Shown here in pieces: positions 3,443 through 39,188 of a stretch of 64,000 nucleotides of DNA (within the stretch, counting starts at the first letter, position 1; each line of letters starts with the position of its first letter). The stretch spans positions 3,584,001 through 3,648,000 of the forward strand of contig CM000208.1 of assembly GCA_000002445.1 (NCBI GenBank), written 5' to 3'. Source of the stretch: Trypanosoma brucei (taxonomy: Eukaryota). The position numbers and the translations under genes are program-made. Below the pieces are notes generated by a model. It did not search any database. It saw nothing but the letters and a program-made list of their open reading frames with translations, and was not told where the DNA came from.

Positions 3443-5410
3443 ATGACGGATGCCCCAAGGGTCACTATTGCGGCCGATGGCGAGGAAACGTCGAATGGTC
3501 CAACGGCGGGTGCCGGGTTGAGGGAGCATCCACCAAAGATACTCTTCAACGTTTGCAGAAGGGAGTTATTTCACCCAAACAAGGGGTACAAGCAGTTGAC
3601 GCGGCGGCTCCGGCAGTTTTGTACGGTAGATGTTAACAAGGAGGATATCAGCATGGATCGTCTCGCGCCGTATGATATTGTTGTCTTCGGCTCACCCCAA
3701 GAGAGGTTGAGTACGGAGGATCTTTCGGTTATTCGGGAATACGTTCAGCAGGGCGGTTCTGTTATTATGCTCTTCGGAGATGGCCACGGGGGCCGCTACT
3801 CATACCTCAACGGCACGTTGGAGGAGTGGACTGGTATTACACTCAATGAGGATTGCGTGGTTCGTACGGTCATGAACAAGTACCTTCACCCTAAGGAGGT
3901 TTGTGTTGTCAATGGTATAACAAACCGGGCTATCAACAAAGCGGCAGGTAAAAATGTTCCTGGAGTCACCGGCTACCAGGGCTACCGCACGGGTTTTGCC
4001 ATGGGCGGCACCGCCCCGTTTGGAAACCGCGGCGCCCCAACGACGCTCAACCGCACTGCTACGGCTGGTGCTCTCGGCAACGCGGCAACGACGGTCGCAG
4101 CAATGGCTATGCAGCAACAACTAGTGGACGAGGCTGCAGCGGAGGCTCCAACTAACTTAACTTTTGTCTACCCGCACGGTTTGAGTTTCAATGTCAACCG
4201 TTCCGCAGTGCCAATTCTTAGCAGTGGTTTCATGGCGTACCCACTTAACCGTCCCATTGCCGTTGTATGGGAAAATAGTGATGAGGCGGAGCACAATGGG
4301 CGAAGGAAGCGAGGCAAACTGCTCCTCGTTGGTACCGGTCTCCTTCTTGAGGACTCTTGGCTTGGAAAAGAAGAAAATGAGCTGTTATCTACTGTTCTCT
4401 TTGACTATATGAACCATCATATTAAATTAAACCAAATCGATGCTGATGAGCCCGATATAACGGACTACCATCACGTACCTGATATTGCATCCCTTTCGGA
4501 GCGGCTGCGTGTTGCTGTCGAGCAGCAGGAGGAACTCCCACGTGATTTCACTAAATTATTCCAAATCGAGACATTTAAACTTGATACAGATATGATTCCA
4601 GAGGTTGTTGAGGCGTATGAGAAACTTAACGTGAAGCAGGAGCCTCTGACACTTATCCCCCCGGAATTCTTAACACCTTTGCCACCCGTCAAACCTGCTG
4701 TCTTTGAACCAACACATCGCGACCCTATGCAGCCGGCTTTGGATCTTTTCGACCTGGACGAAGAGTTTGCCCCTGATAAAGTGCGGTTGAGCCAGTTGAC
4801 CAACAAATGTAAGGCAGAGGATGTTCACTTTTACATTCTTCAGGCGTCGGAGATCCTTGGTGTCACGAAGAAATTACGGAGTCCACGAAACCGCGACCCT
4901 CGTGCACTTTTAGACCACGTGTTCCGTCATGTGATGCAGTATAAGATGAGTACAGCAGGCCCGAGGAATTCATCAGCCAGTGGGTTAGATGGGATGAACG
5001 CGGATACGAATGCTGCGGCTGCGGCTGCGGCTGGAAGTATGATGAGAGTCATTCGGGTGCTAACCAATGAGAATGGAAATAAGGATGCAACACCCTTCGA
5101 TAACAACGTCCCGTGGATGCTGGAAATCCGGGCGGACTTTGGTAGCGGTGACATTACAGGAAAACTGACACTACAGGAGTCGTCCGACCAATTCCCCGCC
5201 CAGGAAGCCCTCCTTGAAGGAACCATCAGGCCCCCTGGTGAGAGGGAATACCCAATGGAGTACGGCACGGCGCTGCGTGGTGCGGCGGGTGAGCAGGTAT
5301 TCTTTGTGTTCCTTGCTATACTTCAGGGAAATTCACTGCGCGGTGTATGTGAAGTAGCAGGAGGTGTTAACAATTCGCGCCATTTCGTCTATGAAATTGA
5401 GGAGCTTTGA
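3443..5410 (+). CDS. IFT52: Intraflagellar transport protein IFT52 (IFT-B core, GIFT domain)
   Basis: The translation aligns along its length with metazoan IFT52. Matching blocks include KILFNVCRRELF…GYKQLTRRLR, GGSVIMLFGDGHG, VVRTVMNKYLHPKEV, LTFVYPHG, PLNRPIAVVWEN, HIKLNQIDADEPDITDY, IPRDFTKLF, LNVKQEPLTLIPPEF, and LDLFDLDEEF…KVRLSQLTNKC. Start is placed at the MTDAPRV ATG (3443); the ORF is open from 3383. Confidence 0.85.
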   Translation: MTDAPRVTIAADGEETSNGPTAGAGLREHPPKILFNVCRRELFHPNKGYKQLTRRLRQFCTVDVNKEDISMDRLAPYDIVVFGSPQERLSTEDLSVIREYVQQGGSVIMLFGDGHGGRYSYLNGTLEEWTGITLNEDCVVRTVMNKYLHPKEVCVVNGITNRAINKAAGKNVPGVTGYQGYRTGFAMGGTAPFGNRGAPTTLNRTATAGALGNAATTVAAMAMQQQLVDEAAAEAPTNLTFVYPHGLSFNVNRSAVPILSSGFMAYPLNRPIAVVWENSDEAEHNGRRKRGKLLLVGTGLLLEDSWLGKEENELLSTVLFDYMNHHIKLNQIDADEPDITDYHHVPDIASLSERLRVAVEQQEELPRDFTKLFQIETFKLDTDMIPEVVEAYEKLNVKQEPLTLIPPEFLTPLPPVKPAVFEPTHRDPMQPALDLFDLDEEFAPDKVRLSQLTNKCKAEDVHFYILQASEILGVTKKLRSPRNRDPRALLDHVFRHVMQYKMSTAGPRNSSASGLDGMNADTNAAAAAAAGSMMRVIRVLTNENGNKDATPFDNNVPWMLEIRADFGSGDITGKLTLQESSDQFPAQEALLEGTIRPPGEREYPMEYGTALRGAAGEQVFFVFLAILQGNSLRGVCEVAGGVNNSRHFVYEIEEL

Positions 5411-7516: not shown

Positions 7517-9865
7517 ATGCGGTTGAATATTACGATTCCCAATGAGCACCACGATGATGCCTGCACTTGCGTTGCGGTGTCGTTGACGGGCGATGTGCTA
7601 AGCGCAGGTGATGATTTCGTCTTACGGCGCTGGAGCCCTAACGGGGAGCCGATGGGTAAAGTAAAGGAATTTGATAGCTGCATCACGTACATTGCGTGGG
7701 TGCCGCTACAAGGCGGACGCAAAGGTCGCAGTGCCAATACCGGATCTGTAGAGGGGAAGGGAAATTACCTTGTGGCTTGCGCTGATGGAACAATCTCATT
7801 TATGAATACGTCTTCTGACCGTGTGGAACGTACCATCGACGCGCACACTGGCACGATAACAGGTGTTGTGTACTCTGGAGATACCTCTTCTATCATTTCT
7901 TCTGGTGAGGATGGGTGTGTTAAGGTTTGGTCACAGGCTGGTATCCCTCGCACAACTCTCGTCTCGGCGGGGAGGTGTGTCTATGGCATTTGCTGGGGTT
8001 CGGAGACAACAGAGCTCGGTGGCGATTGTGTGCTTTACTGTGTTGGTAGCGAGGTGACCATCAAACCTCTCAATCCAGCGGTGAAGAAACAGTTGAAGTG
8101 GAAGGCTCACAATGGGATTGTTTTGGCCGCAGACTGGTCACTTATGACAGGGTTCATTGTCACAGGTGGCGAAGACGGGACCTACAAGGTATGGGATCCG
8201 TACGGCCGCAGTATTTACGTTTCCGCTGCAGGTGGACATCCATGTACTGCTGTGAAGTTTTCAGCTGATGGTGAAATGTTTGCGGTGGGGTCCTTTATGA
8301 ACATTCGGGTATGTGACAAGACGGGGTGGAGTCACACATATGAACGACTTTCTGAGGGAAGTGCGCTTTCACTGCAGTGGACCGCTGATGGAACGCAGGT
8401 GGTTATGGGGTGTGGGAGTGGTTCTGTGTGTACTGCCCAGCTTATAGACCGAAAGATGTACTGGAGCCACTTCTGCGTCACTTTGGTAGACGGAAATAGA
8501 CTGCTTGTTCAGGATGTACTCACAGACGCGGTCGAGGAAGTAGAACAACGTGACAAGGTCATCAAAGTAGAAGTGGGTTACGGATACCTTGTTTCATGTA
8601 CCACAACGCAATGCGCATGCTATCCTATTGACCGCCTTTCTGCACCAGTGCAATTTGATCTCCGTGATGTCGTCATTACGCTAATCCTTGGTCAGAAACA
8701 CTTGTTGCTGGCAGATTGCAACTCTGGAATGCAGATTTACTCGTATGAGGGTCGTCTCATTTGCACCCTTCGTCTCCAATCGTTCCTGAGACCAGAGATT
8801 ATGGCGCCCGATCTTGTCTCCCTTTCGCCGGACACAGTTGCAATTCGAAATCCCGCTGATCCAAGAAAAATCCTTTTCTTTGACACCACTAATGGGAAAG
8901 CGATGGAAGATGCAACCATTACTCATCATCTTGACGTCATTTCGCTGGAGTTGTCGCAGCACGGCGAACTGAGTGAGCGCAAGATTGCCTTCGTGGATCG
9001 GAACCGCGACATGCACTTTGGAGCAGTGCATCGCAAAGTTGGAGCTGCGCAAAAAATCAGCACCATGACTTCCAGTTTAGCGTGGCACGGTGAGCATGAA
9101 ATCCTCGTTGCGATTGCGGATGGACGACTCACGACGTGGTACTATCCAACCATTCTGTTTTCCGACAGGGGTCTGCTGCCCACGACAAAGACTGTGAGAG
9201 ATGATGGTGGAGACGAGTTTTCGCGGAATGATCGAATTGTTTCGTTTTCTGGCACCCGAGTAAGCATTCGACGGGGAGTGGATGGCGCCCTCTTAACATT
9301 TAACACCTCACCGTATCCCTCCTTCATTTTCGAGCACGTGGCACGACACGACTTTTCGAGCGCCACGCGCCTCGCGCGCTTCTTGGATGAGAAACCTCTA
9401 TGGGGCATTTTGGCCGGCCTCGCCCTTCGGCACGGTGACCTGAATGTGGTGGAAATTGCATATGGTGCCCTCTTTGAACTTGACAAGGTACGCTATATTC
9501 GGTACCTAAAGAGCATTCCCACACCGGAAGGTCGGCAAGCGGAACTAGCTTTGTTTCAGCGCCGCTCAGCTGAGGCGGAGCGCATTTTACTTCAGGCTGG
9601 TCTCATATACCGCTGTATTGATATGCATACCCGATTGTTCAACTGGGAGCGCGCTTTGGAAGTCGCAGCGGAGCGGAAGACTCATGTAGACACCGTGCTT
9701 GCGAGGCGGCGGAGGTATCTCGATGCTGTAAAGAGGACAGAGGATATTCCTCTCTTTAAGGAGCTCGGTGCGTCTGTCCGTGTAGATTGGGAAACGGTTG
9801 TTGAGAAGGTGAGACAGGAGGAAGAGAAGGAAGCTCAGCGGCCTGGTGCCAAGCCCTACCAGTAG
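7517..9865 (+). CDS. IFT80: Intraflagellar transport protein IFT80 (WD40 beta-propellers plus C-terminal alpha-solenoid)
   Basis: Near-colinear similarity to human IFT80. MRLNITIP matches MRLKISLL, KVWSQAGIPRTTL matches KIWSKTGMLRSTL, and LKWKAHNGIVLAADW, YKVWDPYGR, FAVGSF…RVCDKTGWS, YSYEGR, IAFVDRNRD, WERALEVAAERKTHVDTVLARRRRYL all have counterparts. 782 aa. Confidence 0.9.
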   Translation: MRLNITIPNEHHDDACTCVAVSLTGDVLSAGDDFVLRRWSPNGEPMGKVKEFDSCITYIAWVPLQGGRKGRSANTGSVEGKGNYLVACADGTISFMNTSSDRVERTIDAHTGTITGVVYSGDTSSIISSGEDGCVKVWSQAGIPRTTLVSAGRCVYGICWGSETTELGGDCVLYCVGSEVTIKPLNPAVKKQLKWKAHNGIVLAADWSLMTGFIVTGGEDGTYKVWDPYGRSIYVSAAGGHPCTAVKFSADGEMFAVGSFMNIRVCDKTGWSHTYERLSEGSALSLQWTADGTQVVMGCGSGSVCTAQLIDRKMYWSHFCVTLVDGNRLLVQDVLTDAVEEVEQRDKVIKVEVGYGYLVSCTTTQCACYPIDRLSAPVQFDLRDVVITLILGQKHLLLADCNSGMQIYSYEGRLICTLRLQSFLRPEIMAPDLVSLSPDTVAIRNPADPRKILFFDTTNGKAMEDATITHHLDVISLELSQHGELSERKIAFVDRNRDMHFGAVHRKVGAAQKISTMTSSLAWHGEHEILVAIADGRLTTWYYPTILFSDRGLLPTTKTVRDDGGDEFSRNDRIVSFSGTRVSIRRGVDGALLTFNTSPYPSFIFEHVARHDFSSATRLARFLDEKPLWGILAGLALRHGDLNVVEIAYGALFELDKVRYIRYLKSIPTPEGRQAELALFQRRSAEAERILLQAGLIYRCIDMHTRLFNWERALEVAAERKTHVDTVLARRRRYLDAVKRTEDIPLFKELGASVRVDWETVVEKVRQEEEKEAQRPGAKPYQ

Positions 9866-12826: not shown

Positions 12827-14056
12827 ATGTTTCAGCGATGGTCGTTTGCCCTGTGTCGACCTATCGTTGCGGCAGCACAGGTATCGCAACAGCAAGTGCC
12901 TCCATCTGAGGAGCCACGGAACGAGTCAGGTGCCGCAAACCCTCCGCTGGTGAAGGAAGAGTTCCTTCGGCAGTTTCGCGAGCGTTTGGCGAATGACAAG
13001 ACGGGAAGAAATTCATTGGAGGGGTTTCTTGACCTTCCGGAGAATCTTCCACCCACCGCCGCCTCAATTGGACCACTGAAGCGAGGTAAGGAGCCTCTTC
13101 CTCCTTGGTTGAAACTCAAAGTTCCTATGGGAGCATCGAGGCAGCCGCGGTTTAACAAGATACGGCGCAATATGCGTGAAAAACGTCTAGCTACTGTGTG
13201 TGAGGAGGCCAAGTGCCCAAACATCGGTGAATGTTGGGGAGGAGGTGATGAGGAAGGGGACGGCACCGCCACTGCCACAATCATGGTGATGGGGGCACAT
13301 TGTACAAGGGGCTGCCGCTTCTGTTCCGTAATGACGAGTCGCACACCTCCACCACTAGACCCAGAGGAACCACGCAAAACTGCTGATGCAGTCGCTGACA
13401 TGGGTGTGGAATATATAGTTATGACTATGGTGGACCGTGATGACTTGGCTGACGGTGGCGCTGCTCATGTTGTGCGCTGCGTGACGGCCGTGAAGGAGAG
13501 GAATCCCGGACTACTTCTTGAGGCACTTGTTGGGGACTTTCACGGAGACCTCAAGCTGGTTGAAATGGTTGCTGGTTCACCTCTCAATGTCTATGCTCAT
13601 AACATAGAGTGTGTCGAGCGAATTACGCCAAACGTACGAGATCGACGCGCTTCTTATCGACAGTCCCTTAAGGTACTTGAGCACGTGAATAATTTCACTA
13701 AAGGAGCTATGCTCACCAAGAGCAGTATCATGCTTGGGCTCGGGGAAAAGGAGGAGGAGGTGCGGCAAACCCTTCGTGACCTGCGGACGGCGGGCGTTTC
13801 TGCTGTGACCCTGGGCCAGTACCTCCAACCCTCACGGACGCGGCTAAAGGTCAGTCGCTACGCCCATCCTAAGGAGTTTGAGATGTGGGAAAAGGAAGCG
13901 TTGGATATGGGCTTTTTGTACTGTGCATCGGGGCCCATGGTACGGAGCTCCTACCGAGCTGGTGAATATTACATTAAAAATATTTTGAAACAGCGGGAGA
14001 CTGTCGAAGCTCCGTCAGTGTCAGATGGAGGGAATGAACCAAAGGATTCCGAGTAG
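12827..14056 (+). CDS. LIPA: Lipoyl synthase (radical-SAM, mitochondrial)
   Basis: Carries the canonical [16 protein letters not shown]…[22 protein letters not shown] auxiliary and radical-SAM cysteine motifs, and is colinear with human LIAS to the C-terminus ([14 protein letters not shown]). The N-terminal extension is consistent with a mitochondrial presequence. Confidence 0.92.
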
Positions 14057-27465: not shown

Positions 27466-30400
27466 ATGACGTATAAGGAAGTCGCGCTTTCGTCTCAGTT
27501 AAATGGTGTGTTCCACTGTGCCGCAGTTGTTACCCTTCGAACAGCACCGGCAGACACGCTTCACCACCCGGTGTCGAGCAGTGGGACACACAAGCAAGTT
27601 CCTGATGGAGGTGTGAAATGTGAGGAACTCGAAGGAGATAATCGCCGTAGCCGCAGCCCTTCCATAACTGTTTTCACAGTTTTAAACCCCAAAGCGGCGT
27701 CGTCTTCTCTGCAAGTCCGCCAACTCCCCCAACAACCCCCAGAGGAAATGCGTTGCACGCTGTGGGTAGGAGCAAGTAGCGGTGATATTGAGGTGCGGTC
27801 GGCGGTACAACCTGACCGTGTACTTCGTTTTGTACCAAAAAAGTCGCGGGCCGTTGTTACTTCACTCATTCAAATTGGTTCTAGCCGCGTGGTCGCCGGC
27901 CTTTCCGATGGGTATATTCGTGTATTTGACGCCGTCACGCTGTGCGAGTATCAGCAGACGCGAGCGCACACGTCTGCTGTCAGGTGCCTGATGGCCGTGG
28001 CAACCCCAATAGTACAAGGAGTTCAACCAGAATGTGAATTTACACCTGCCCCAGTTTTCCTGACGGCGTCTTCCGATCGTACAATAGCAAAGTGGGATGC
28101 TGTATCCTTACAGTGTCTCTGTAGGCTGAAGGGACACACGTGTTCCGTTTCAGCATTAGTGTCGACACTTAACGGTGTCTTTGTTTTTAGCGGTGCTGAC
28201 GATGGGTCGCTGCACATGTGGTCGATGGTCGATAATACACAAGTGGTGGGGAGGCCCACTACCGTTGCCAAGAGTGCGGGTAAAAAAAAGCGAACTGGAA
28301 AGGACCTTTTAGGACCTTCTCCTCATCGACAAAAGTCACAATTACCGAAATGTAGCTTGGAGGAACCTCAAGTAAAACAAACGAGCCAAGCGAGCGGTCG
28401 TGGAGCTTCTCAGGCCAGGCCGGGGAAGTGTCGTACGAGTAGGTCCGCTTCCGTAGGAATAATGAAGGTGCGGAGCCTGCTGCGCTCGCCTTCTATCGGA
28501 AGCCCTCAAAGGCATCGGGTTGACGGAGGGGGAACAGGGCGCTCGCGTTCAATTGCAGCCATGCAAAGACATGGTCTCTTGCCAAAAATTAACTGGGGAA
28601 AAGATCTTGCGTTGCCTACCACTGCCGCTAGGGCACCAAATACTGCCACGAGGGATTCTGACAGTGACAGGCAATTTGATGGAAGTTCAGATGACGAAAA
28701 CCTGTTGACTGCGGAGCCTGTTATACCTGTCGATGGCCAAGGCTCAGCAGTTTTCTGTCGGAGTGGGCGAAATGTTGGTGATGGTGTGGGCGCTCCGCGA
28801 GAGGGAAGGAAAGGTCGAGGCAAGCTGAAAAAGAAATCTGCGCAGCAAGTGCAGGTGTCACGCTTCGCGGATGTACTCGCAAAGCTTCAAGGCCCTGTTT
28901 CTGATAGCGCGATGGGTTGCCGCCTGGCGGCGGTGCATTCGGAGCCTGTTGCATCTGGAATAGAGGGTGGTACCCTCCTTTGGCCATTGAAGTGTGAGCA
29001 CGCTAAGCGGATTACTCACCTGGCCATTGTTTGGGACCGGTTTTTGCTAAGTGGGTCGTCTGATGGTGAAGTCAAAGTTTTAGCTCTGCCTTCTGGCCGA
29101 TCAATTCGCACTGTCCACAGAGGTTACACTCCTGTGACAGGTATGACTGTCGATAACGCTCGTTGTTTGCTGTGGATTGCAACAGCGGATGGCTGCTTTC
29201 ACGTGCACAATATGTTGACTCCGGATTTGCAACAACTGCATGCATGGCGAGACCTCAGCACTCCACGACCCCTTTTAGTACCAATGACAACGAATCGCTT
29301 GTTATGTCAGCTTTATCTACTGGCAGCACCTGGAAGTAAGAAGAAGTTGTTTGACAGTCGTAGTGCTGGAAACAAGATCAAGCCAAAGATCAACTTGGAA
29401 AGTAGAAATATCAATTGTAAACGGAAGAAGACGGGACAAGTAGCCCCTACCGACCAAGGAGCCCAGTCTGGGTTAGTTGAACCTGAAGAAGCGGTTCAAG
29501 CGCCGCCTAACGCAACATTGGCGTGTATTCAGGTGGATGATGGGGACGATGAGGCACTGGCCGATATAGGTTCGCTTCGCAAGTTGGACGTTGCTCATAT
29601 GAAAGCGCGCTGTACAATCGCCAAAATGGAATCGAAAGAGGAAGTGTTCCGTAGGGTATTGCGCCGACCTGTAACCGACGATGGCATGGAGTTGCGTGAG
29701 TGTTTGTTAAAGGAGCAAACACGCGTTGTCAACGCCTTATATGGTACTCGCTTTCATTTTTCTCTACGGGATTCGTTTAGGCGCTGGATGGCCTGGTCAA
29801 CGCGGCGCGTTAGACGGTACCAATGTATGCGAAGGGTGCGGTTTCTGGCGGCAACTAATCAGGAGCGCCTACTCGGCTGCTATTTTAGGAAATGGAGGCG
29901 GCACCGTGTCTCACAGAGACTTGTAGAGCAAGACGTGCAGATAAGATCGTTGGAGTCTCGTTCCTTCAGTACAACGGTGGAGCGCTGTGCGAAACCTTGT
30001 GGTGTGGCTCTTGGTGGCAGGGCATGCGTCGCCCTCGCAAGCACACAACGGCGCAACCTGCTGCATCGTTACTACAGATACTGGCTTCATCACGTCGTAG
30101 GTTTACGGCAGGCGCTGTCGCGTTCTGTGGCCTTCAACCGTTTGTTCCTCTCGTTTGACTCCAAAGTGTGTGACAGTGCCTTCGTGTTCCGTCGGTTAGC
30201 AACGACCAACCAGTGCGCACAACGACAAAAGCGGGCGCTACAACTGCTGCTGCTGCGGATGGAGGCTCACTACCGTCAACTGCAGCACCGCTGTATGCGA
30301 AGGTGGTTTTCCTTTCTCCAGGATCAAAGAGAGTCGCGGCAGACATACAATCTCGTGGAAACGCTCACATCTGTGTTAGTCAATGGGGAGGCACTTAGGA

Positions 30401-32370
30401 TGAGTGCCTACTTCAAGTGGTATAGGTTCGCATTGTTTGAAACAAAGCTTCACCGCTTTGATGAAGAGCGCGCGACGCTGCAGCGGGAGTGGATCGTTGT
30501 GCAGAACGCACTAGAAAGTAAGGAAACCGTGGCTAACCTGAAGCAGGAAGAGGTGCAGTTGGAGGTTGAAATTGCCCAGTTAGCATATGAGCGTGATGAA
30601 ATAGACTCACAGAATGTCTCGCTTCGTGCGGATATTGTACACATCCAAATGAGCAAGTCTCTTGACTGTATTCTCGCCGGGTACGTTGACGCGGAGGATA
30701 AACTGAAGACAGTTCCGCGGTTATTACCGGAACCTCCATTTCACAGCCGCCGTTTGTGGACTTCCAGCGGCGAGCGGTTTTCCCCTGTGAATGAGGATGA
30801 CTCGTCTGCTGAGGCAGCGTTACTCAGTCAGCTGTCCGCCGTGTTGCGCGCACTCAAAGCTACGGTTTTACGTTGTAGGCGGCACTGTAGTCTTATCACG
30901 ACATCCCATGACCGGGTGCTGCGAATTCCTATTTGGGACAAGCCGGTTGAAACGCGAGAGTGGAGCTCCGGAGTTTCACATTCATCCGTTGGCGGCGATT
31001 CGTCGGCCCTCCACGGAACGTCAGGGGCTTCTTTATCAGACACACGCTATTCGAGTGAGCGCCGCAGGAGCATCGCCAGCTCCACTCATACGGTGGCGTA
31101 CCTAGCTGATGAGTTTGGTCGAACTGTGGGACGTCTTCGTTTGCTTATTGAGGAGGTCGCCAGACAAGCCGGTGCTGATCTCGAGGAGTCGACGGACCAA
31201 ACCCTGTCCGCCTTCTTGAAACACAAGAATTCCATTGGTATGGGCAGTGAGAGCATTCGGGTGATAAACGCAGAGTGCCCGTCAGTGGAGTGGCTGAATT
31301 TTGTCCCCTCCACCAAACGAGCAGAGATCCTTCCGCTCCTTGCGGATTTGGTGACCATGTATGACTCGTTTAAAGCGCATAGCGATACTGAAATAGAGAC
31401 AGGCGGGAAGACATTGTCAACTAGGGGTGCGCTCACATCTGCACCACTGCCGCTGCGGAGTTTGTGCCGGACGCAAGCGGCGATGTGGCTGGTCCGCCAT
31501 TCCGCCGTAATATTGGAGTTAATGGCACCGGGCACATGGGAAAAGCATTTAAATGTGTGGTTTTTAGCGGATTCGATGAAGGATTCGGTGGCGCTGTTCA
31601 ACCAAAATCTGGACGTAGGGTTGGCAACACCAAAGCGAACGAAAAAGAAGGAGTCATCAGCCGAACTGAAGGACACTTCTTCAATCCTGTCAGACATCTC
31701 CTTCCAGCCATCAAAGGCAGTTGTGAAGGAGAAACGCAAGAAAATTCCCAAGACTGTTGCTAGTGGTAAGGGTACCCCTAGAAAGGCGTCTTCAGTTTCC
31801 TCCCCCATCACGTCACAGCCTAGTGTGGAGAGCACACCCGTAAGATTATGGGCGTCACCCAAAGCGGCGATTGTTCAGCCACAGCGAAAGCCTGCCGTAT
31901 CCTGTAGCAACCTCCACTCTCCGGTTAGCCGCAGCGTGTGTGGACCTCTGGATGGTGAGTTTGTTGTACATGCAGCGCAACGCTCTAATTCGGTTCCCCT
32001 ACGACATCACAGTGCTATCTCGAGCTCAAGGTCTTTTGCTTCTGCTCCGTTGACGCGCCCTTACCTTGGGTTCCGTGTTGCCGTTGGCCGCGACAGCAGT
32101 GGATGTACAACACTATCAATTCAGGAAGTCACCCAAACTTACACCGGAAGTAATGGTGGCGCTGATCTTATGGGTCCAGCGTTTGCTGCCGGATTGCGCG
32201 TCGGTGACCAACTCGTCCGCTTTGCAGGTTACACAGTTACAGAACTGGCTGCGTTCAATACTGTTGTGGCAAGGCACGTGCGACCCTCGGCTTCTATTCC
32301 CGTTGTATTCTCCCGTGATGGCGTAGTAATGTCCGCCACAATTGTGGTTGGTGAGAAAAGAAGGGAGTGA
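27466..32370 (+). CDS. Large hypothetical protein: N-terminal WD40 repeats, central coiled-coil/Arg-rich region, C-terminal PDZ-like domain (1634 aa)
   Basis: WD-repeat signatures are visible (GLSDGYIRVFD, SSDRTIAKWD, GADDGSLHMWS, GSSDGEVKVL). The C-terminal segment GFRVAVGR…LSIQEVTQ…AGLRVGDQLVRFAGYTV…VVFSRDGVVMSATIV has PDZ-like topology. Confidence 0.8.
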   Translation: MTYKEVALSSQLNGVFHCAAVVTLRTAPADTLHHPVSSSGTHKQVPDGGVKCEELEGDNRRSRSPSITVFTVLNPKAASSSLQVRQLPQQPPEEMRCTLWVGASSGDIEVRSAVQPDRVLRFVPKKSRAVVTSLIQIGSSRVVAGLSDGYIRVFDAVTLCEYQQTRAHTSAVRCLMAVATPIVQGVQPECEFTPAPVFLTASSDRTIAKWDAVSLQCLCRLKGHTCSVSALVSTLNGVFVFSGADDGSLHMWSMVDNTQVVGRPTTVAKSAGKKKRTGKDLLGPSPHRQKSQLPKCSLEEPQVKQTSQASGRGASQARPGKCRTSRSASVGIMKVRSLLRSPSIGSPQRHRVDGGGTGRSRSIAAMQRHGLLPKINWGKDLALPTTAARAPNTATRDSDSDRQFDGSSDDENLLTAEPVIPVDGQGSAVFCRSGRNVGDGVGAPREGRKGRGKLKKKSAQQVQVSRFADVLAKLQGPVSDSAMGCRLAAVHSEPVASGIEGGTLLWPLKCEHAKRITHLAIVWDRFLLSGSSDGEVKVLALPSGRSIRTVHRGYTPVTGMTVDNARCLLWIATADGCFHVHNMLTPDLQQLHAWRDLSTPRPLLVPMTTNRLLCQLYLLAAPGSKKKLFDSRSAGNKIKPKINLESRNINCKRKKTGQVAPTDQGAQSGLVEPEEAVQAPPNATLACIQVDDGDDEALADIGSLRKLDVAHMKARCTIAKMESKEEVFRRVLRRPVTDDGMELRECLLKEQTRVVNALYGTRFHFSLRDSFRRWMAWSTRRVRRYQCMRRVRFLAATNQERLLGCYFRKWRRHRVSQRLVEQDVQIRSLESRSFSTTVERCAKPCGVALGGRACVALASTQRRNLLHRYYRYWLHHVVGLRQALSRSVAFNRLFLSFDSKVCDSAFVFRRLATTNQCAQRQKRALQLLLLRMEAHYRQLQHRCMRRWFSFLQDQRESRQTYNLVETLTSVLVNGEALRMSAYFKWYRFALFETKLHRFDEERATLQREWIVVQNALESKETVANLKQEEVQLEVEIAQLAYERDEIDSQNVSLRADIVHIQMSKSLDCILAGYVDAEDKLKTVPRLLPEPPFHSRRLWTSSGERFSPVNEDDSSAEAALLSQLSAVLRALKATVLRCRRHCSLITTSHDRVLRIPIWDKPVETREWSSGVSHSSVGGDSSALHGTSGASLSDTRYSSERRRSIASSTHTVAYLADEFGRTVGRLRLLIEEVARQAGADLEESTDQTLSAFLKHKNSIGMGSESIRVINAECPSVEWLNFVPSTKRAEILPLLADLVTMYDSFKAHSDTEIETGGKTLSTRGALTSAPLPLRSLCRTQAAMWLVRHSAVILELMAPGTWEKHLNVWFLADSMKDSVALFNQNLDVGLATPKRTKKKESSAELKDTSSILSDISFQPSKAVVKEKRKKIPKTVASGKGTPRKASSVSSPITSQPSVESTPVRLWASPKAAIVQPQRKPAVSCSNLHSPVSRSVCGPLDGEFVVHAAQRSNSVPLRHHSAISSSRSFASAPLTRPYLGFRVAVGRDSSGCTTLSIQEVTQTYTGSNGGADLMGPAFAAGLRVGDQLVRFAGYTVTELAAFNTVVARHVRPSASIPVVFSRDGVVMSATIVVGEKRRE

Positions 32371-32800
32371 CGCAAGTAGAAGACAACTCATACCTATTGA
32401 TGTTCTCTTATAATGATTAGGGATACTTTTCATTTTAAAATTCTCTCACGTCGACCCTAATCAATATCTCCCCCTCTCCAAACAGTGTACCGTACTTCCT
32501 AGACAGGCATTAACTCTTCCTTTTTGCCTCTCCTACCCCACTCATTTCCTTTTTGTACTATCCTCATCAAATAGGAACGTTGGTTCACACCTTCACGACA
32601 CGTAAAGCATTCACAATTACACCACAAACATAATAATAACAGCAACTTCCTTCTTTCCTTCCTCTTACAAAATGCTTTTCCTTCTAATTGCCACACTCTC
32701 GTACTTTCATCTGTATTGTTTCTCCATTTGCTCTTTCCTTAAGTTAGCGCAAACGTCACACACTGTGTTTTGAGAAACTTCTACACTTTGTGAAATTACA

Positions 32801-33496
32801 ATGGTGGTCATACATAGTGGACTTGTAACTCCCGTATTGGAAATTATGTCACTAGTTAAGCCGTTACCTTTTGATGTGGATGTGTTGTTGGATGAACATC
32901 CCGATATGACAGTTTATCATCGCCCTCCATTGCGGAGCCGTGGTAGTGGAAGTAAATATATTTGCAATCATCATCCTGTTGAATTGCTTTCTTATGAAGT
33001 GTACTTGTGTGATACGGAAGATGAACCAGTTGTCGATTTTGAAGTGGATAATCAAATTGTCGTACGATATCAACTTAACCCGTATTGTGCTGCTTCAGAG
33101 TTTCCATTTCCTCGTGTGTTTGGAAATACAATCTACCGTAACCAAAGACCTTACCTCCGTCCTGCGTATGTGGAAGTTGCACATGGCTCTGGCGGTTGTT
33201 GTTTCAATGGTAGCGGATCATCATATGGCATTAATGTTTGTGTGGCTCCCACTGATATTTTTGCTGGTTTCCCTCGCTCCAATAATGGTGATGATGCTGT
33301 TATTTACTCTACGGTACCCCACATCAGGAAACTCCTACAGCGGCCCTTTTCCCCCTTTATGGAATGTGGTCCCTTAATTGCGGATGATGTTTTCTTTCAT
33401 TGGGATACCCTTGGTTTGCTTAGTTTGACTGATACGTGTGATTTGGGCATGTTCACAATTGAGGGTGTGTGTGGTGTATCCTCACATATTATGTAA
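32801..33496 (+). CDS. Tandem-array gene copy 1: Cys-rich hypothetical protein (231 aa)
   Basis: Intact ORF preserved in all three units. This copy carries the divergent mid-cassette ASEFPFPRVFGNTIYRNQRP. Confidence 0.75.
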   Translation: MVVIHSGLVTPVLEIMSLVKPLPFDVDVLLDEHPDMTVYHRPPLRSRGSGSKYICNHHPVELLSYEVYLCDTEDEPVVDFEVDNQIVVRYQLNPYCAASEFPFPRVFGNTIYRNQRPYLRPAYVEVAHGSGGCCFNGSGSSYGINVCVAPTDIFAGFPRSNNGDDAVIYSTVPHIRKLLQRPFSPFMECGPLIADDVFFHWDTLGLLSLTDTCDLGMFTIEGVCGVSSHIM

Positions 33497-33999
33497 TTTG
33501 CACTGAAATGCGTCATTACTTAATATGTGAAGGGTGCTATTGTTATTTTATTCCATATATTATTATATCACATGAGTCTCCCGCTACAATCACGTGGCAT
33601 TGTGCTGTGTGTCATCGGGTAGTTTAATATATTTATATATATATATATATTCTTTTTTTCTCCTTCACATAATTATTGTGGACGGTAGTTAATAATGCAG
33701 TATTTTTAATTGATTAGTGTCCTGGGGTTCTTCATCGTATTTGTTGATATGTTTGCTTGTTTGTTTCTATTACTTACATAACTGTTATATATATATATTA
33801 AAATTTTTTCTTACCGTTGTCACTCTTTCATTTTCTTTTCTGCAACCGATTGTTATCATACTTCCTTTGTCTAACTACATCACTAATTGCCACACTCTCG
33901 TACTTTCATCTGTATTGTTTCTCCATTTGCTCTTTCCTTAATTTAGCGCAAACGTCACACACTGTGTTTTGAGAAACTTCTACACTTTGTGAAATTACA

Positions 34000-34692
34000 A
34001 TGGTGGTCATACATAGTGGACTTGTAACTCCCGTATTGGAAATTATGTCACTAGTTAAGCCGTTACCTTTTGATGTGGATGTGTTGTTGGATGAACATCC
34101 CGATATGACAGTTTATCATCGCCCTCCATTGCAGAGCCGTGGTAGTGGAAGTAAATATATTTGCAATCATCATCCTGTTGAATTGCTTTCTTATGAAGTG
34201 TACTTGTGTGATACGGAAGATGAACCAGTTGTCGATTTTGAAGTGAGTAACCGAATTGTCGTACGATATCAACTTAACCCGTATTGTGCTGCTCAACTTT
34301 CACACCTTCGTGGGTTTGAGCCTCTCGTATATCCCTACGAGAGCCGTTACCTCCGTCCTGCGTATGTGGAAGTTGCACATGGCTCTGGCGGTTGTTGTTT
34401 CAATGGTAGCGGATCATCATATGGCATTAATGTTTGTGTGGCTCCCACTGATATTTTTGCTGGTTTCCCTCGCTCCAATAATGGTGATGATGCTGTTATT
34501 TACTCTACGGTACCCCACATCAGGAAACTCCTACAGCGGCCCTTTTCCCCCTTTATGGAATGTGGTCCCTTAATTGCGGATGATGTTTTTGTAAGGTGGG
34601 GAAGTAGCGGTTTGCTTAGTTTGACTGATACGTGTGATTTGGGCATGTTCACAATTGAGGGTGTGTGTGGTGTATCCTCACATGTTATGTAA
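34000..34692 (+). CDS. Tandem-array gene copy 2 (230 aa)
   Basis: Same ORF as copy 1, with mid-cassette AQLSHLRGFEPLVYPYESR and C-terminal variant VFVRWGSSG. Confidence 0.75.
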   Translation: MVVIHSGLVTPVLEIMSLVKPLPFDVDVLLDEHPDMTVYHRPPLQSRGSGSKYICNHHPVELLSYEVYLCDTEDEPVVDFEVSNRIVVRYQLNPYCAAQLSHLRGFEPLVYPYESRYLRPAYVEVAHGSGGCCFNGSGSSYGINVCVAPTDIFAGFPRSNNGDDAVIYSTVPHIRKLLQRPFSPFMECGPLIADDVFVRWGSSGLLSLTDTCDLGMFTIEGVCGVSSHVM

Positions 34693-35207
34693 TTTGCACT
34701 GAAATGCGTCATTACTTAATATGTGAAGGGTGCTATTGTTATTTTATTCCCTTTATTATTATATCACATGAGTCTCCCGCTACAATCACGTGGCATTGTG
34801 CTGTGTGTCATCGGGTAGTTTAATATATTTATATATACATATATATATATTCTTTTTTTCTCCTTCACATAATTATTGTGGACGGTAGTTAATAATGCAG
34901 TATTTTTAATTGATTAGTGTCCTGGGGTTCTTCATCGTATTTGTTGATATGTTTGCTTGTTTGTTTCTATTACTTACATAACTGTTATATATATATATAT
35001 ATATATTAAAATTTTTTCTTACCGTTGTCACTCTTTCATTTTCTTTTCTGCAACCGATTGTTATCATACTTCCTTTGTCTAACTACATCACTAATTGCCA
35101 CACTCTCGTACTTTCATCTGTATTGTTTCTCCATTTGCTCTTTCCTTAAGTTAACGCAAACGTCACACACTGTGTTTTGAGAAACTTCTACACTTTGTGA
35201 AATTACA

Positions 35208-35900
35208 ATGGTGGTCATACATAGTGGACTTGTAACTCCCGTATTGGAAATTATGTCACTAGTTAAGCCGTTACCTTTTGATGTGGATGTGTTGTTGGAT
35301 GAACATCCCGATATGACAGTTTATCATCGCCCTCCATTGCAGAGCCGTGGTAGTGGAAGTAAATATATTTGCAATCATCATCCTGTTGAATTGCTTTCTT
35401 ATGAAGTGTACCTGTGTGATACGGAAGATGAACCAGTTGTCGATTTTGAAGTGAATAACCGAATTGTCGTACGATATCAACTTAACCCGTATTGTGCTGC
35501 TCAACTTTCACACCTTCGTGGGTTTGAGCCTCTCGTATATCCCTACGAGAGCCGTTACCTCCGTCCTGCGTATGTGGAAGTTGCACATGGCTCTGGCGGT
35601 TGTTGTTTCAATGGTAGCGGATCATCATATGGCATTAATGTTTGTGTGGCTCCCACTGATATTTTTGCTGGTTTCCCTCGCTCCAATAATGGTGATGATG
35701 CTGTTATTTACTCTACGGTACCCCACATCAGGAAACTCCTACAGCGGCCCTTTTCCCCCTTTATGGAATGTGGTCCCTTAATTGCGGATGATGTTTTCTT
35801 TCATTGGGATACCCTTGGTTTGCTTAGTTTGACTGATACGTGTGATTTGGGCATGTTCACAATTGAGGGTGTGTGTGGTGTATCCTCACATATTATGTAA
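35208..35900 (+). CDS. Tandem-array gene copy 3 (230 aa)
   Basis: Mid-cassette as in copy 2, C-terminal patch VFFHWDTLG as in copy 1. Confidence 0.75.
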   Translation: MVVIHSGLVTPVLEIMSLVKPLPFDVDVLLDEHPDMTVYHRPPLQSRGSGSKYICNHHPVELLSYEVYLCDTEDEPVVDFEVNNRIVVRYQLNPYCAAQLSHLRGFEPLVYPYESRYLRPAYVEVAHGSGGCCFNGSGSSYGINVCVAPTDIFAGFPRSNNGDDAVIYSTVPHIRKLLQRPFSPFMECGPLIADDVFFHWDTLGLLSLTDTCDLGMFTIEGVCGVSSHIM

Positions 35901-36129
35901 TTTGCACTGAAATGCGTCATTACTTAATATGTGAAGGGTGCTATTGTTATTTTATTCCCTTTATTATTATATCACATGAGTCTCCCGCTACAATCACGTG
36001 GCATTGTGCTGTGTGTCATCGGGTAGTTTAATATATTTATATATACATATATATATATTCTTTTTTTCTCCTTCACATAATTTTTGTGGACGGTAGGTAA
36101 TAATGCAGTATTTTTAATTGATTAGTGTC

Positions 36130-36300
36130 CTGGGTTTCTTTTTTTGTCTTTCTTATTTTTGCTTTTTGTTTTAAAATAAAATTTGATCATTATTTAAGCT
36201 TCCTCAATTGTTCAGTGGTTGGTTGGTTATCGTTTTGGATGATTTGAGGTTGTGTTTTTTTTTTGACCTTTTCTTATTTGAGAAAGGAAAGGTTTGTGTA
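36130..36300 (+). promoter_or_regulatory. Pyrimidine/T-rich tract upstream of RPS13
   Basis: ctgggtttctttttttgtctttcttatttttgctttttgtttt … gttgtgttttttttttgaccttttcttatttgag ends just before the ATG at 36311. Confidence 0.4.
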
Positions 36301-36310
36301 GTTGTAGGCG

Positions 36311-36766
36311 ATGGTGCGCATGCATGGTAATGGTCATGGCAAGGCTGCATCGGCCTTGCCGTACCGCCGGACACCACCGACGTGGTTGAAATCCTCCAGC
36401 CGGGATGTTATCGATGCCGTTTGCAAGTTGGCAAAAAAGGGGCTTTCACCAAGTCGTATTGGCATGCAACTTCGTGACTCGATGGGTATCGCGCAAGTGA
36501 AAAATGTGACGGGCCGCAAAATTTTGCGCATTTTAAAGCACAAGGGCATGGCGCCTGAGATCCCTGAGGATTTGTACTGCTTAATTAAGCGGGCAACTCA
36601 AATGCGTAAACACCTTGAGCGCAACACGAAAGATAAGGATACGAAGTTCCGTCTTATTTTGGTTGAGTCCCGCATTCACCGCCTTGCACGGTATTACAGA
36701 CGTGTGAAGCAACTTCCGCCCACGTGGAAGTACGAGTCCAGCACGGCTTCAGCCATGGTTGCATAA
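36311..36766 (+). CDS. RPS13: 40S ribosomal protein S13 (uS15)
   Basis: [20 protein letters not shown]…[31 protein letters not shown]…[40 protein letters not shown] is a near-invariant S13 sequence. 151 aa. Confidence 0.95.
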
Positions 36767-37296: not shown

Positions 37297-38064
37297 ATGG
37301 CGTCAAAGGGTTGTTTCATTGCCGTTCTTATAGCACGTACGCATGATCATGTCCCTTTGTGTAGTTTTACCGATGAAAACTACGCCAATTGGAATCAGAT
37401 CAGGCAACAGGAGCAGCGTATTCTTGAGCGAATGGAGTCACCGGCGTCGGTACCAGATTCAGCAGGGACGAGAGGAAGTTACTACCAGAGCTTTGACCAT
37501 AAGGACTGTATTTACTTTGCATTTCAGGATGCGGGGACGGGGTTGACGATTATCACCGTTTTAAACAAACTTCTTTTGCGCAATTCCAGTGACGTTACGT
37601 CGACTAACCATCTTGCGTGTAGTCTGTTAGACATGATCTTCTCTGAGTTTACGCAGGCTTACTCCACATCCGAGATTTCAGCCAGGACAGTTCGTCCCTT
37701 TCAGTTTATAAAATTTGAATCCACTCTAGAAAAACTCATACACCGCGTGCAACGCGAACGACAAAACGATGTTGTTAGCGATTCGCACGGTGGACAGCGA
37801 CGTCAGGTTAATACGCAGTACGATGCAATTAAACAGGAGCTAACAGACGTTCACTTCGTTATGCGCAAGAACTTGGAAGACCTTATGGTGCGTGGGGAGA
37901 AACTTGAGACAATGAATCAGTTTAGCGCCCAGCTGGTGGATGAAAGCTCTCGGTTCTACAAGAAGACGGCTCGCATGAACAGGATGCGTTTGTTAAAACT
38001 GTACGGCCCTCCTGCTGTAGTGATTAGCATTCTAGCTCTCTTCTTCTACCTCTACCTGTTCTAA
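37297..38064 (+). CDS. SEC22: Longin-domain R-SNARE, Sec22-like
   Basis: N-terminal longin fold (CFIAVLIART…) and RPFQFIKFESTLEKLI matching Sec22 RPYSFIEFDTFIQK. The SNARE heptads carry a central Arg (DVHFVMRKNLEDLMVRGEKLETM), followed by a C-terminal TM helix AVVISILALFFYLYLF. Confidence 0.85.
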   Translation: MASKGCFIAVLIARTHDHVPLCSFTDENYANWNQIRQQEQRILERMESPASVPDSAGTRGSYYQSFDHKDCIYFAFQDAGTGLTIITVLNKLLLRNSSDVTSTNHLACSLLDMIFSEFTQAYSTSEISARTVRPFQFIKFESTLEKLIHRVQRERQNDVVSDSHGGQRRQVNTQYDAIKQELTDVHFVMRKNLEDLMVRGEKLETMNQFSAQLVDESSRFYKKTARMNRMRLLKLYGPPAVVISILALFFYLYLF

Positions 38065-38813
38065 CGAAACTGTGTAATTATCGCCACGACAGGTGTTGAT
38101 ATTAGTTTGTGCTTCATCATTCCGTGAGAGTAGCGGGAAGAAACGTCGTTTAATATGGTGGGGTCACTGACTCGGTTTTATGAGTAGAGGGAGTCTGGCG
38201 ATATAAACTCGGTTTTGTGCAATTTCGTTCCAAGTCAGGGAAATCAGAAGGTGTTACTTAATTGATGAAGGCCACTCCGTCATGGATGGCGGTTAAGGTA
38301 AGGTGGAAGTGCCACAAAGAAACCGAAGTGACTGTGAAGGAAGGGAATAAGGAAAGGAAATGTGGGTGTTGTACGATAATGGCACTACTGATACTGAGTT
38401 TTTTTAGTTGTGAAGTCCTCAAAAACGTGCATGTGTATCAATGCCTTTCACATTTATCTTTTTAGCTTAGTGTTTTGTGTGCGCCATCATGTACCGGTTG
38501 GGCCTCTCTGCTATCGTGTTTGAGCTGGTCCCCGTGACAGATAACTTTCTGTCTTCCCTCTCCTCGCTCTGTTCCCTGGTTCGTCATTAACTATTAACCC
38601 CTCCCACAACTGCTAAACTGTGCACTGATAGCCAGTCTCGCCTTTTCGTTGCTCTTGTTGTTTTAGTTTTTTTGGAAAGGAACCGAGCTTTATCAACGGC
38701 AGGAAGAGTTGTTTCGAGCACAGTTAGGAAGGAAAGAAGCATCGTTTTTCTCTTTCTTTTTTCCCCTTTTACCCTCTGGGACAGGAAGAAGAAAGCGTAA
38801 ATACTTGGTCTGT

Positions 38814-39188
38814 ATGTCATTGAGGGAGATTGAACTTGCCCAGGTGCAACCACGGGAGCACCTCCTTCACCCGTGTGATGTGATCCAACGAAGCGCATTT
38901 CAGCGTGACAATGCGGAGCGGTTGCATCGTATACGCACGACACTTGGCTGGGGTGCGGCTGCTGATACCGCTCTTACAGAAACAACGCTCCTCTCGTCTC
39001 GCCGTCTCGGTGCATTGCCAAGCAGCTTTGCGTTATATCACCATTACCGCGGTACCGCGTCGGAGTTGACACCGATGGATATATATGGCCAACCGGAGGA
39101 TGATCCCAACGTGCAACCATCATCCCGATCCGTGGTTGAGAAGCTTGTGTATGGGCATGAGTTGACGATGAAGAACATGGGGATGTAG
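38814..39188 (+). CDS. Small hypothetical protein (124 aa; the ORF is open from 38709, but the upstream part translates a pyrimidine tract)
   Basis: + strand ORF between Sec22 and the Pol subunit gene; start placed at MSLREIE. No recognisable domain. Confidence 0.35.
   Translation: MSLREIELAQVQPREHLLHPCDVIQRSAFQRDNAERLHRIRTTLGWGAAADTALTETTLLSSRRLGALPSSFALYHHYRGTASELTPMDIYGQPEDDPNVQPSSRSVVEKLVYGHELTMKNMGM

Follow-up and report, generated by a model that had tools for sequence, protein, structure and literature searches.

In this work we have analysed 64,000 nucleotides of chromosome 10 of Trypanosoma brucei brucei TREU927 (contig CM000208.1, positions 3,584,001 to 3,648,000; this whole stretch is called the window here, and positions are counted within it), and specifically a tandem array of three nearly identical genes on its plus strand. 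Three head-to-tail units, found by repeat search and unit alignment, start at 32684, 33883 and 35091 with a start-to-start spacing of 1199 and 1208 bp and 99% identity. Unit 1 (32684..33882) holds a 5′ untranslated region (UTR), the coding sequence (CDS) of copy 1, a 3′ UTR and a spacer; unit 2 occupies 33883..35090, and unit 3 (35091..36134, delimited by alignment) is truncated, its likeness to the others fading about 235 nt past the stop codon. The open reading frames (ORFs) of copy 1 (32801..33496, 231 aa), copy 2 (34000..34692, 230 aa) and copy 3 (35208..35900, 230 aa) match exactly the proteins XP_827982, XP_827983 and XP_827984, all named ‘hypothetical protein, conserved’. The identity of about 99% outside the divergent patches described below takes in the 5′ UTR, the 3′ UTR and the spacer. 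Most of the non-patch variation comes from (TA)n/(AT)n microsatellites in the 3′ UTR and spacer, which differ in length among the units (33634-33642 versus 34827-34842 versus 36035-36050; also 33759-33800) and amount to a 4-nt ATAC indel and 8 nt of TA. The array appears as one row, #111 (Tb10.61.1420), in Table S3 of Jackson 2007 (PMC1855330), where it is given as three copies of 696 bp without signal peptide, transmembrane helix or Pfam domain.

The differences among the units are strongly clustered. Of 1047 aligned core columns 59 vary, and 46 of these fall into three patches that together span 83 columns; outside the patches 13 of 964 columns are variable, four of them in one indel, with scattered variable codons at 45 (R/Q) and 230 (I/V). 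Permuting the order of the polymorphic sites among the window copies gave p ≤ 5e-5. The first patch, codons 83-85, has four of eight columns variable (hypergeometric P = 5e-4, as for the values that follow) and reads GAT AAT CAA (DNQ) in copy 1 (33047..33055), AGT AAC CGA (SNR) in copy 2 (34246-34254) and AAT AAC CGA (NNR) in copy 3 (35454-35462). An earlier note on this DNA, made from the letters alone, had placed a D/S/N difference at about codon 82; the variation is real, the codon is 83, and codon 85 varies as well. The second patch is a loop (codons 99-117) in which 29 of 56 columns (33095-33150) are variable, a 3-nt indel included (P = 7e-25). Copy 1 carries what we call cassette A at 33095..33151 (SEFPFPRVFGNTIYRNQRP) and copy 2 cassette B at 34294..34347 (QLSHLRGFEPLVYPYESR); the cassette of copy 3 (35502..35555) is identical to that of copy 2. 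The third patch, codons 199-204, sets copy 2 apart from copies 1 and 3, with 13 of 19 columns variable (33394-33412 versus 34590-34608; P = 3e-13). Together with the preceding phenylalanine codon it reads TTC TTT CAT TGG GAT ACC CTT (F-FHWDTL) in copy 1 (33392..33412), is also F-FHWDTL in copy 3 (35796-35816), and reads TTT GTA AGG TGG GGA AGT AGC (F-VRWGSS) in copy 2 (34588..34608). The three products can thus be written R45, DNQ, cassette A, FHWDTL, I230 for copy 1; SNR, cassette B, VRWGSS, V229 for copy 2; and NNR, cassette B, FHWDTL, I229 for copy 3. Nucleotide alignment of the units therefore bears out both the mid-gene divergence of copy 1 and the C-terminal divergence of copy 2 that had been noticed earlier, and the peptides quoted for the copies at that time were exact. 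The mid-gene segment, first put at about 75 versus 72 nt, is real as well, with a divergent block of 57 versus 54 nt and identical flanks for the remainder.

What are the two loop cassettes? The earlier note took the segment for a replacement and not for point divergence, and this did not hold. Orthologues in other trypanosomes read ..PPxLPPPPGFExxIYRNQRPYLR.. at this loop; of this, cassette A retains IYRNQRPYLR and cassette B GFE, neither breaks the frame, and their lengths differ by one codon. On this comparison the cassettes are homologous versions of one loop and not foreign insertions. Two other origins for cassette B were considered and discarded. A compensated frameshift does not fit an in-frame alignment whose differences affect all three codon positions evenly, and an inverted or templated copy of cassette A would need complementary arms, which A lacks. 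Cassette B itself contains a perfect 8-bp inverted repeat, CTCTCGTA-TATCCC-TACGAGAG, at 34322-34343 and 35530-35551. The 81-nt region with cassette B folds better than its shuffled versions (z = -2.74; 2 of 200 shuffles), whereas cassette A has no structure of this kind (z = +0.52).

Is there recombination among the copies? The three window copies do not prove it on their own, because their site patterns are private single-copy changes and one tree, (1,(2,3)), accounts for every one of them; the earlier statement that no single tree explains the differences is thus not borne out by the window copies. The segmental exchange postulated alongside it is nevertheless real, and other genomes of the T. 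brucei group demonstrate it. A 90% cluster gave ten distinct proteins, from TREU927, T. b. gambiense DAL972, two T. equiperdum assemblies and one Logan assembly. All A cassettes among these ten proteins are identical, and so are all B cassettes. Cassettes A and B are joined to FHWDTL and VRWGSS in all four combinations across TREU927, DAL972, the two T. equiperdum assemblies and RNA contigs, which shows that the blocks have recombined. Codons 83-85 read DNQ, SNR, NNR, NSQ or DSQ in the ten proteins, and one protein (P0012) carries VRWDTL, a break inside the C-terminal patch itself. The position of cassette A in the array also differs, being first in TREU927 (A, B, B) and second in DAL972 (B, A, B). 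A copy from T. equiperdum OVI has cassette A at 26 of 26 diagnostic sites on a copy-2-like background, and DNA comparison confines its breakpoints to 33054-33095 and 33150-33394. Published tests on the T. b. brucei and T. b. gambiense copies of this array agree: the row for it in Jackson et al. 2010 (PMC2854126) gives p < 0.001 for the pairwise homoplasy index (PHI), five breakpoints by the genetic algorithm for recombination detection (GARD) and 0 by the likelihood ratio test (LRT).

Mosaics of this kind could be made artificially if a collapsed repeat had been assembled into chimeric units. Such an error would be favoured by the 99% identity of the units, the use of Sanger reads for the TREU927 assembly, the end of the T. 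equiperdum OVI contig within the array, and the difference in copy number between two T. cruzi assemblies. Four T. brucei-group assemblies made independently nevertheless contain identical blocks. Exactly copy 2, with cassette B and GSS on one contig, is encoded by four RNA-seq assemblies (ERR7929157, ERR7929161, ERR7929163 and ERR7929164), and T. vivax also has a homologous mosaic, as do two T. cruzi assemblies, which agree on the set and order of isoforms. These observations effectively rule out chimerism, which had been named at the outset as a possible source of the differences, and we give practically no credence to artificial cassette combinations. Since RNA-seq assemblies encode it, the combination of B with GSS is independent of genome assembly.

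Copy 2 is expressed and trans-spliced, because an RNA contig that bears the spliced leader, from one of the four RNA-seq assemblies just named, encodes exactly this copy. In its mRNA the 3′ end of the spliced leader, CTGTACTATATTG, is joined to CGCAAACG, so that the acceptor AG lies at 33945..33946 and the junction 53 nt before the start codon. At the corresponding place unit 1 also has AG (32746-32747), whereas unit 3 has AA (35153-35154). The units differ in their potential acceptors: unit 1 has two AGs (TTAAGTTAG|CGC; 32742-32747), unit 2 only the downstream one (TTAATTTAG; 33941-33946), which is the acceptor used in the spliced-leader-bearing RNA contig (L004), and unit 3 only the upstream one (TTAAGTTAA; 35149-35154). 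Judged from these sites, the 5′ UTRs of the copies should differ by 4 nt. The exact products of copies 1 and 3 had no match in the contig index.

The patches are much older than the DNA around them. By the method of Nei and Gojobori, copies 1 and 2 have a synonymous divergence (dS) of 1.85 and a non-synonymous divergence (dN) of 0.58 in the patches and a dS of 0.000 in the rest of the CDS. For copies 1 and 3 the corresponding values are 0.72, 0.34 and 0.007, and for copies 2 and 3, whose coding sequences differ in patches 1 and 3 and not in the loop, they are 0.26, 0.14 and 0.007. The arrays of two other species, described below, behave in the same way, with a patch dS of 0.86-1.02 and a value of at most 0.006 elsewhere in T. 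vivax, and 0.71-0.74 and 0.006 in T. cruzi. An excess of synonymous diversity at and beside the patches (dS 0.26-1.85 versus at most 0.007) is therefore present in three species, and it includes synonymous differences at conserved codons in or beside the patches, namely N84 (AAT/AAC), Y112 (TAC/TAT) and F198 (TTC/TTT). With patch synonymous divergence of this size next to nearly identical flanks, the patches coalesce roughly two orders of magnitude deeper than their surroundings. Patch dN is 0.34-0.58 for the T. vivax and T. cruzi comparisons and for those T. brucei comparisons in which the loop cassettes differ, and dN/dS is about 0.3-0.7, a crude estimate since the codons have been hit repeatedly. 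Because this ratio is below 1, a recent burst of positive selection is not indicated.

We then asked whether the same positions vary in related arrays. Within T. brucei, T. vivax and T. cruzi, identity among copies is 90-100%; between these species it drops to 37-41%. T. vivax has an array of at least nine copies with a period of about 1200 bp, and in nine copies all 16 variable CDS nucleotides fall into codons 10, 58, 83-85 and 198-203. The forms there are VDQ, SGQ or SGR at 83-85 and ISWDAA or IRWGSV at 198-203, and their combinations are mixed among the copies. The T. cruzi array has at least ten copies with a period of 1368 bp. Of 28 variable CDS nucleotides in ten copies, 26 lie in codons 82-86 (DIQL or NPRP), 106-117 (FED..NQRPR or RNN..YCGAH) and 207 (A or D). 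One T. cruzi array contains six different combinations, every combination is found among 15 distinct T. cruzi proteins, and a second assembly has the same isoforms in the same order, with at least eight copies as against at least ten. Along the T. cruzi array (L007 425-13459, L008 1793-12091) the patch states lie in spatial blocks, with NPRP in the first six copies and DIQL in the last four; the loop order is FED first, RNN six times and FED three times, and A and D alternate. In T. rangeli both loop forms occur in adjacent genes, T. c. marinkellei has an RKN..YRYFGAH form, and T. melophagium copies vary at the residue homologous to H/R200 of T. brucei.

In a common alignment, seven of the eight variable T. 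vivax codons are also variable in T. brucei (expected 0.99, P = 1.6e-6), ten are shared between T. brucei and T. cruzi (expected 2.85, P = 6.7e-5) and four between T. vivax and T. cruzi (expected 0.81, P = 0.004), P-values that are generous because sites within a patch are not independent. Codons 83, 84, 85 and 202 are variable in all three species. Some forms themselves are alike across species. In the core of patch 3, GSS of T. brucei (GGA AGT AGC) and GSV of T. vivax (GGA AGT GTC) differ at two of nine nucleotides and the D forms (GAT ACC CTT and GAT GCC GCC) at four of nine, whereas the two forms within one species differ at six to seven of nine; the pattern would suit clustering by form more than by species, on too few sites for a robust tree. 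The flanks of this patch differ by 0.43 between the two species. To reach GGA from GAT and AGT from ACC takes two steps each, and the probability of finding common Gly and Ser codons in both species by chance is about 0.04. RWGS as against WD-x is thus an alternative held in common by T. brucei and T. vivax, as in trans-species polymorphism; T. cruzi and T. rangeli each have the two loop forms YRNQRP and YR[YF]xG[AP]x, and a Q/R dimorphism at codon 85 is common to T. brucei, T. vivax and T. cruzi. Descent of the GS form from the ancestor of T. brucei and T. vivax is favoured by these codons, although not conclusively, as the sites are few.

Could the patches instead be positions that are merely unconstrained or mutable, struck independently in each species by recent local hypermutation or a burst of positive selection? 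Patch positions are indeed among the most variable between species, and the perfect hairpin of cassette B could mark a templated multi-nucleotide mutation. Cassette A, as read from its sequence, nevertheless has no imperfect palindrome able to template B, and the forms do not vary among T. brucei subspecies and strains, which argues against ongoing hypermutation. Low constraint also does not explain a roughly 100-fold excess of synonymous divergence, a patch dN/dS below 1 does not fit a burst of selection, and T. brucei and T. vivax encode GS by the same two-step codons, GGA AGT. We consider such an origin highly improbable.

The protein is an orphan as far as sequence comparison can tell, and its family appears to be specific to Trypanosoma. 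Neither the three copies nor 14 family members matched Pfam, and a profile search of PDB sequences gave no match at E ≤ 10. A HMMER scan of 1.84 billion representative proteins returned ten matches, nine of them Trypanosoma proteins and the tenth a weak match to a repetitive protein; the latter (P0021, 576 aa) consists of units of about 55 aa (..NPLRGCIPL..GISVRTHC..), aligns to family positions 62-154 with E = 1.2e-4 and is probably spurious. A profile search of 5.8 billion proteins added members from T. cruzi, T. grayi, T. c. marinkellei and T. melophagium. Two lineages can be recognized. Lineage 1, the syntenic array, is found in T. brucei, T. congolense, T. vivax, T. theileri, T. melophagium, T. 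rangeli, T. cruzi and T. grayi, and lineage 2, which is unlinked to it, in T. vivax (P0016), T. theileri (P0017) and T. melophagium (P0030). One T. melophagium gene model (P0004/P0050) fuses an N-terminally truncated family copy to a homologue of the window ORF 38709-39188 (..LLHPCDVIQR..MKNMGM) and is probably an artefact of annotation or assembly or a decayed terminal copy. Searches of the literature by accession and UniProt entry for the T. brucei, T. b. gambiense, T. congolense, T. vivax, T. cruzi and T. theileri members returned no papers.

The existence of a second lineage makes it conceivable that cassette B, the GSS patch or both reached the array by ectopic copying of a diverged paralogue at another genomic locus, which is what the earlier note had proposed. 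The lineage-2 loop (..QLQP.R...VVFESVFLR, IVYESAHLR) is in fact closer to cassette B (QLSHLR..PLVYPYESRYLR) than cassette A is; its segments VVFESVFLR and IVYESAHLR recall LVYPYESRYLR of cassette B. This likeness, however, covers only about 8 of 19 residues, cassette B keeps the lineage-1 motif GFE, and lineage 2 has WCSLG or WGTLG and not RWGS, so that it cannot have been the donor of patch 3. Neither the search of 5.8 billion proteins nor that of the 1.84 billion representatives brought up a lineage-2 member from T. brucei or T. congolense or any T. brucei paralogue outside the array, and tblastn and short blastn searches found no further paralogue or cassette donor in the window; the whole T. 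brucei genome was not searched. An imported origin of cassette B, the GSS patch or both is, in our opinion, very unlikely, and the claim of an import was not sustained.

The structure of the protein was approached with two AlphaFold2 runs, using 6 and 14 sequences, which gave predicted local distance difference test (pLDDT) values of 37 and 40, too low for mapping the patches. The better model had no meaningful match in PDB by Foldseek (best E of 0.96). Both models have strands at about 86-92, 118-129, 198-201 and 205-208, which would put all three patches at strand ends or in loops, a weak hint at best. Patches 1 and 3 also show a charge pattern: one form pairs arginine and serine (S-x-R, R-W-G-S) and the other is acidic or neutral (D-x-Q, W-D-x). 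This pattern, seen in the sequences, may bear on function, and we regard it as a lead and not as a result.

The surroundings of the array are those of an ordinary chromosomal core locus. Upstream lies a gene for a protein of 1634 aa with WD40 and PDZ domains (27466-32370), which is WDR1 (Tb927.10.15080), since the ORF contains published WDR1 peptides. The identifiers of the array genes, deduced from their position next to WDR1, should be Tb927.10.15090-15110. Downstream follow RPS13 (36311-36766) and then a longin/synaptobrevin SNARE gene (37297-38064; Pfam). All large ORFs of the window are on the plus strand, and we therefore assign them to one polycistronic transcription unit, which further upstream also includes ordinary context genes for IFT52 (3383-5410), IFT80 (7517-9865) and lipoyl synthase (12827-14056), all by Pfam. 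The order WDR1, array, RPS13 and SNARE (VAMP) is kept in T. brucei, T. vivax and T. cruzi; the T. vivax RPS13 gene (L006 11191-11643; 89% amino-acid identity by tblastn) is not called in the T. vivax record. The array proteins have no hydrophobic stretch at either terminus, as read by eye with no dedicated predictor run, and lack the signal peptide together with a glycosylphosphatidylinositol (GPI) signal or transmembrane anchor that marks proteins like variant surface glycoproteins (VSGs), invariant surface glycoproteins (ISGs) or BARP. In its head-to-tail order, its place in one polycistron, the likeness of its copies within a species and the evidence for recombination, the array agrees with the class of concertedly evolving mosaic tandem arrays.

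How can nearly perfect homogenization and such old differences coexist in one gene? The account that we find the most convincing, and hold to be somewhat probable, is that the units are homogenized by concerted evolution, whereas old forms of the patches persist, probably through selection, and are shuffled by short conversions or crossovers. The concerted evolution of the units, the old and stable blocks, their transfer between backgrounds and the recurrence of the pattern in three species are shown by the data above. According to this account, homologous recombination, i.e. gene conversion and unequal exchange among copies or alleles, makes the units of one species about 99% alike in CDS, UTRs and spacer but spares three short segments, codons 83-85, the loop at 99-117 and the turn at 199-204. 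Each of these exists in two or a few old and stable alternative forms, which travel as intact blocks and are reassorted among the copies, most likely through short conversion tracts or crossovers ending in the identical DNA between the patches, so that every genome encodes a small set of combinatorial isoforms. The alternative forms would be kept by selection for more than one isoform, either as balancing selection or as retention of subfunctionalized paralogues. That the same positions vary among the array copies of T. vivax and T. cruzi argues for selection keeping the alternative forms, and since some forms also cross species we infer that they are most likely maintained selectively and not by a recombination barrier. 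The earlier idea of diversifying selection on a specific surface patch thus survives in part: the dN/dS of 0.3-0.7 does not support it, and the variation of the same positions in T. vivax and T. cruzi speaks for selection that retains alternative forms. The patches themselves are candidate surface loops, which may act on a binding or regulatory interface.

The main rival to this account needs no selection. The forms could be neutral relics of an old duplication or of old alleles, in which the dense mismatches abort heteroduplex formation so that conversion tracts stop at the edges of the blocks. Homologous recombination in T. brucei is sensitive to mismatches and to substrate length, which counts in its favour, as do the saturated synonymous divergence of the patches beside identical flanks, the patch dN/dS below 1 and the location of the breakpoints in the identical DNA between the patches. 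Whole patches nevertheless move between backgrounds, and such a barrier must therefore be leaky; drift should then have fixed one form in an array of three copies, and yet TREU927 and DAL972 both retain both forms of all three patches. Moreover, T. vivax and T. cruzi show polymorphism at the homologous positions, and the forms of patch 1 in T. brucei and of residue 207 in T. cruzi differ by 1-4 nt, too few mismatches to block recombination. We think that a purely neutral persistence is doubtful, with a small but appreciable chance of being correct.

Several points weigh against the selective account that we prefer. The dN/dS of the patches is below 1, and selection is inferred and not measured. 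Dense mismatches can themselves slow homogenization, and a part of the persistence could be mechanical. The ‘surface patch’ is a candidate only, given the AlphaFold2 pLDDT of 37-40 and the lack of a relative in PDB. The case for shared forms rests on very few codons, namely the 9-nt core of patch 3 with its P of about 0.04, and changes of the D/G, T/S and Q/R kind recur across the genus, so that some convergence is possible. The A/B dimorphism of the loop was not seen in the one T. vivax array examined, the loop dimorphism of T. brucei resembles that of T. cruzi weakly, and what the overlap of variable codons comes down to is the coincidence of three patches.

Some well-known systems resemble this array in part. 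In trans-species polymorphism of the major histocompatibility complex (MHC) type, short-tract conversion shuffles old motifs. The array is similar in its old motifs in short segments, the raised synonymous diversity at and beside them, the many combinations and the sharing of some forms between species, but its variants sit in tandem paralogues and are not alleles of one locus, its protein has no signal peptide or transmembrane helix, and its patch dN/dS is not above 1. The L/M opsin genes of primates and the RHD/RHCE pair are tandem paralogues homogenized by gene conversion except at functionally critical residues. Here, too, the flanks are homogenized and a few diagnostic segments stay distinct; unlike in those pairs, however, the patch states recombine freely into all combinations and there are no two fixed paralogue identities. 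The mosaic VSG genes of T. brucei are built by segmental gene conversion, and they share with the array the organism, presumably the recombination machinery, and the copying of short blocks between related genes. In contrast to VSG genes, the array is a housekeeping-type locus of the chromosome core that does not encode a surface antigen and has no silent archive, and its forms are few, old and stable and not constantly novel. The nearest relatives are the mosaic tandem arrays of T. brucei, of which this array is one: in the sections and tables of Jackson 2007 (PMC1855330) and Jackson et al. 2010 (PMC2854126) that concern it, concerted evolution is combined with sequence mosaics, and each survey gives array #111 one table row. 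The existence of mosaic tandem arrays and recombination in this one are thus established by those surveys. The three patches, their roughly 100-fold older dS and their recurrence in T. vivax and T. cruzi are not described in those tables and sections or in what literature searches by accession and gene identifier returned.

To this our work adds that, in a single protein found only in Trypanosoma, the same three micro-patches vary in T. brucei, T. vivax and T. cruzi amid homogenized surroundings. The array is a candidate case of a dimorphism maintained over a long time inside a concertedly evolving array, and it offers a clean natural experiment on selection versus gene conversion in tandem arrays. 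Perhaps selection has kept two-state micro-cassettes at the three positions since before T. brucei and T. vivax separated, some of them perhaps since before the T. cruzi clade split off, with recombination reassorting them so that every parasite carries a small set of isoforms; we offer this further-reaching proposal tentatively and would not yet bet on it. If it is true, a lineage-specific function would have its specificity-determining or regulatory sites in the patches, and one possibility is a charge or phospho switch between R-W-G-S or S-x-R on the one side and W-D-x or D-x-Q on the other. The patch residues are the most likely determinants of function in an orphan family that is present in all three major pathogenic trypanosome lineages.

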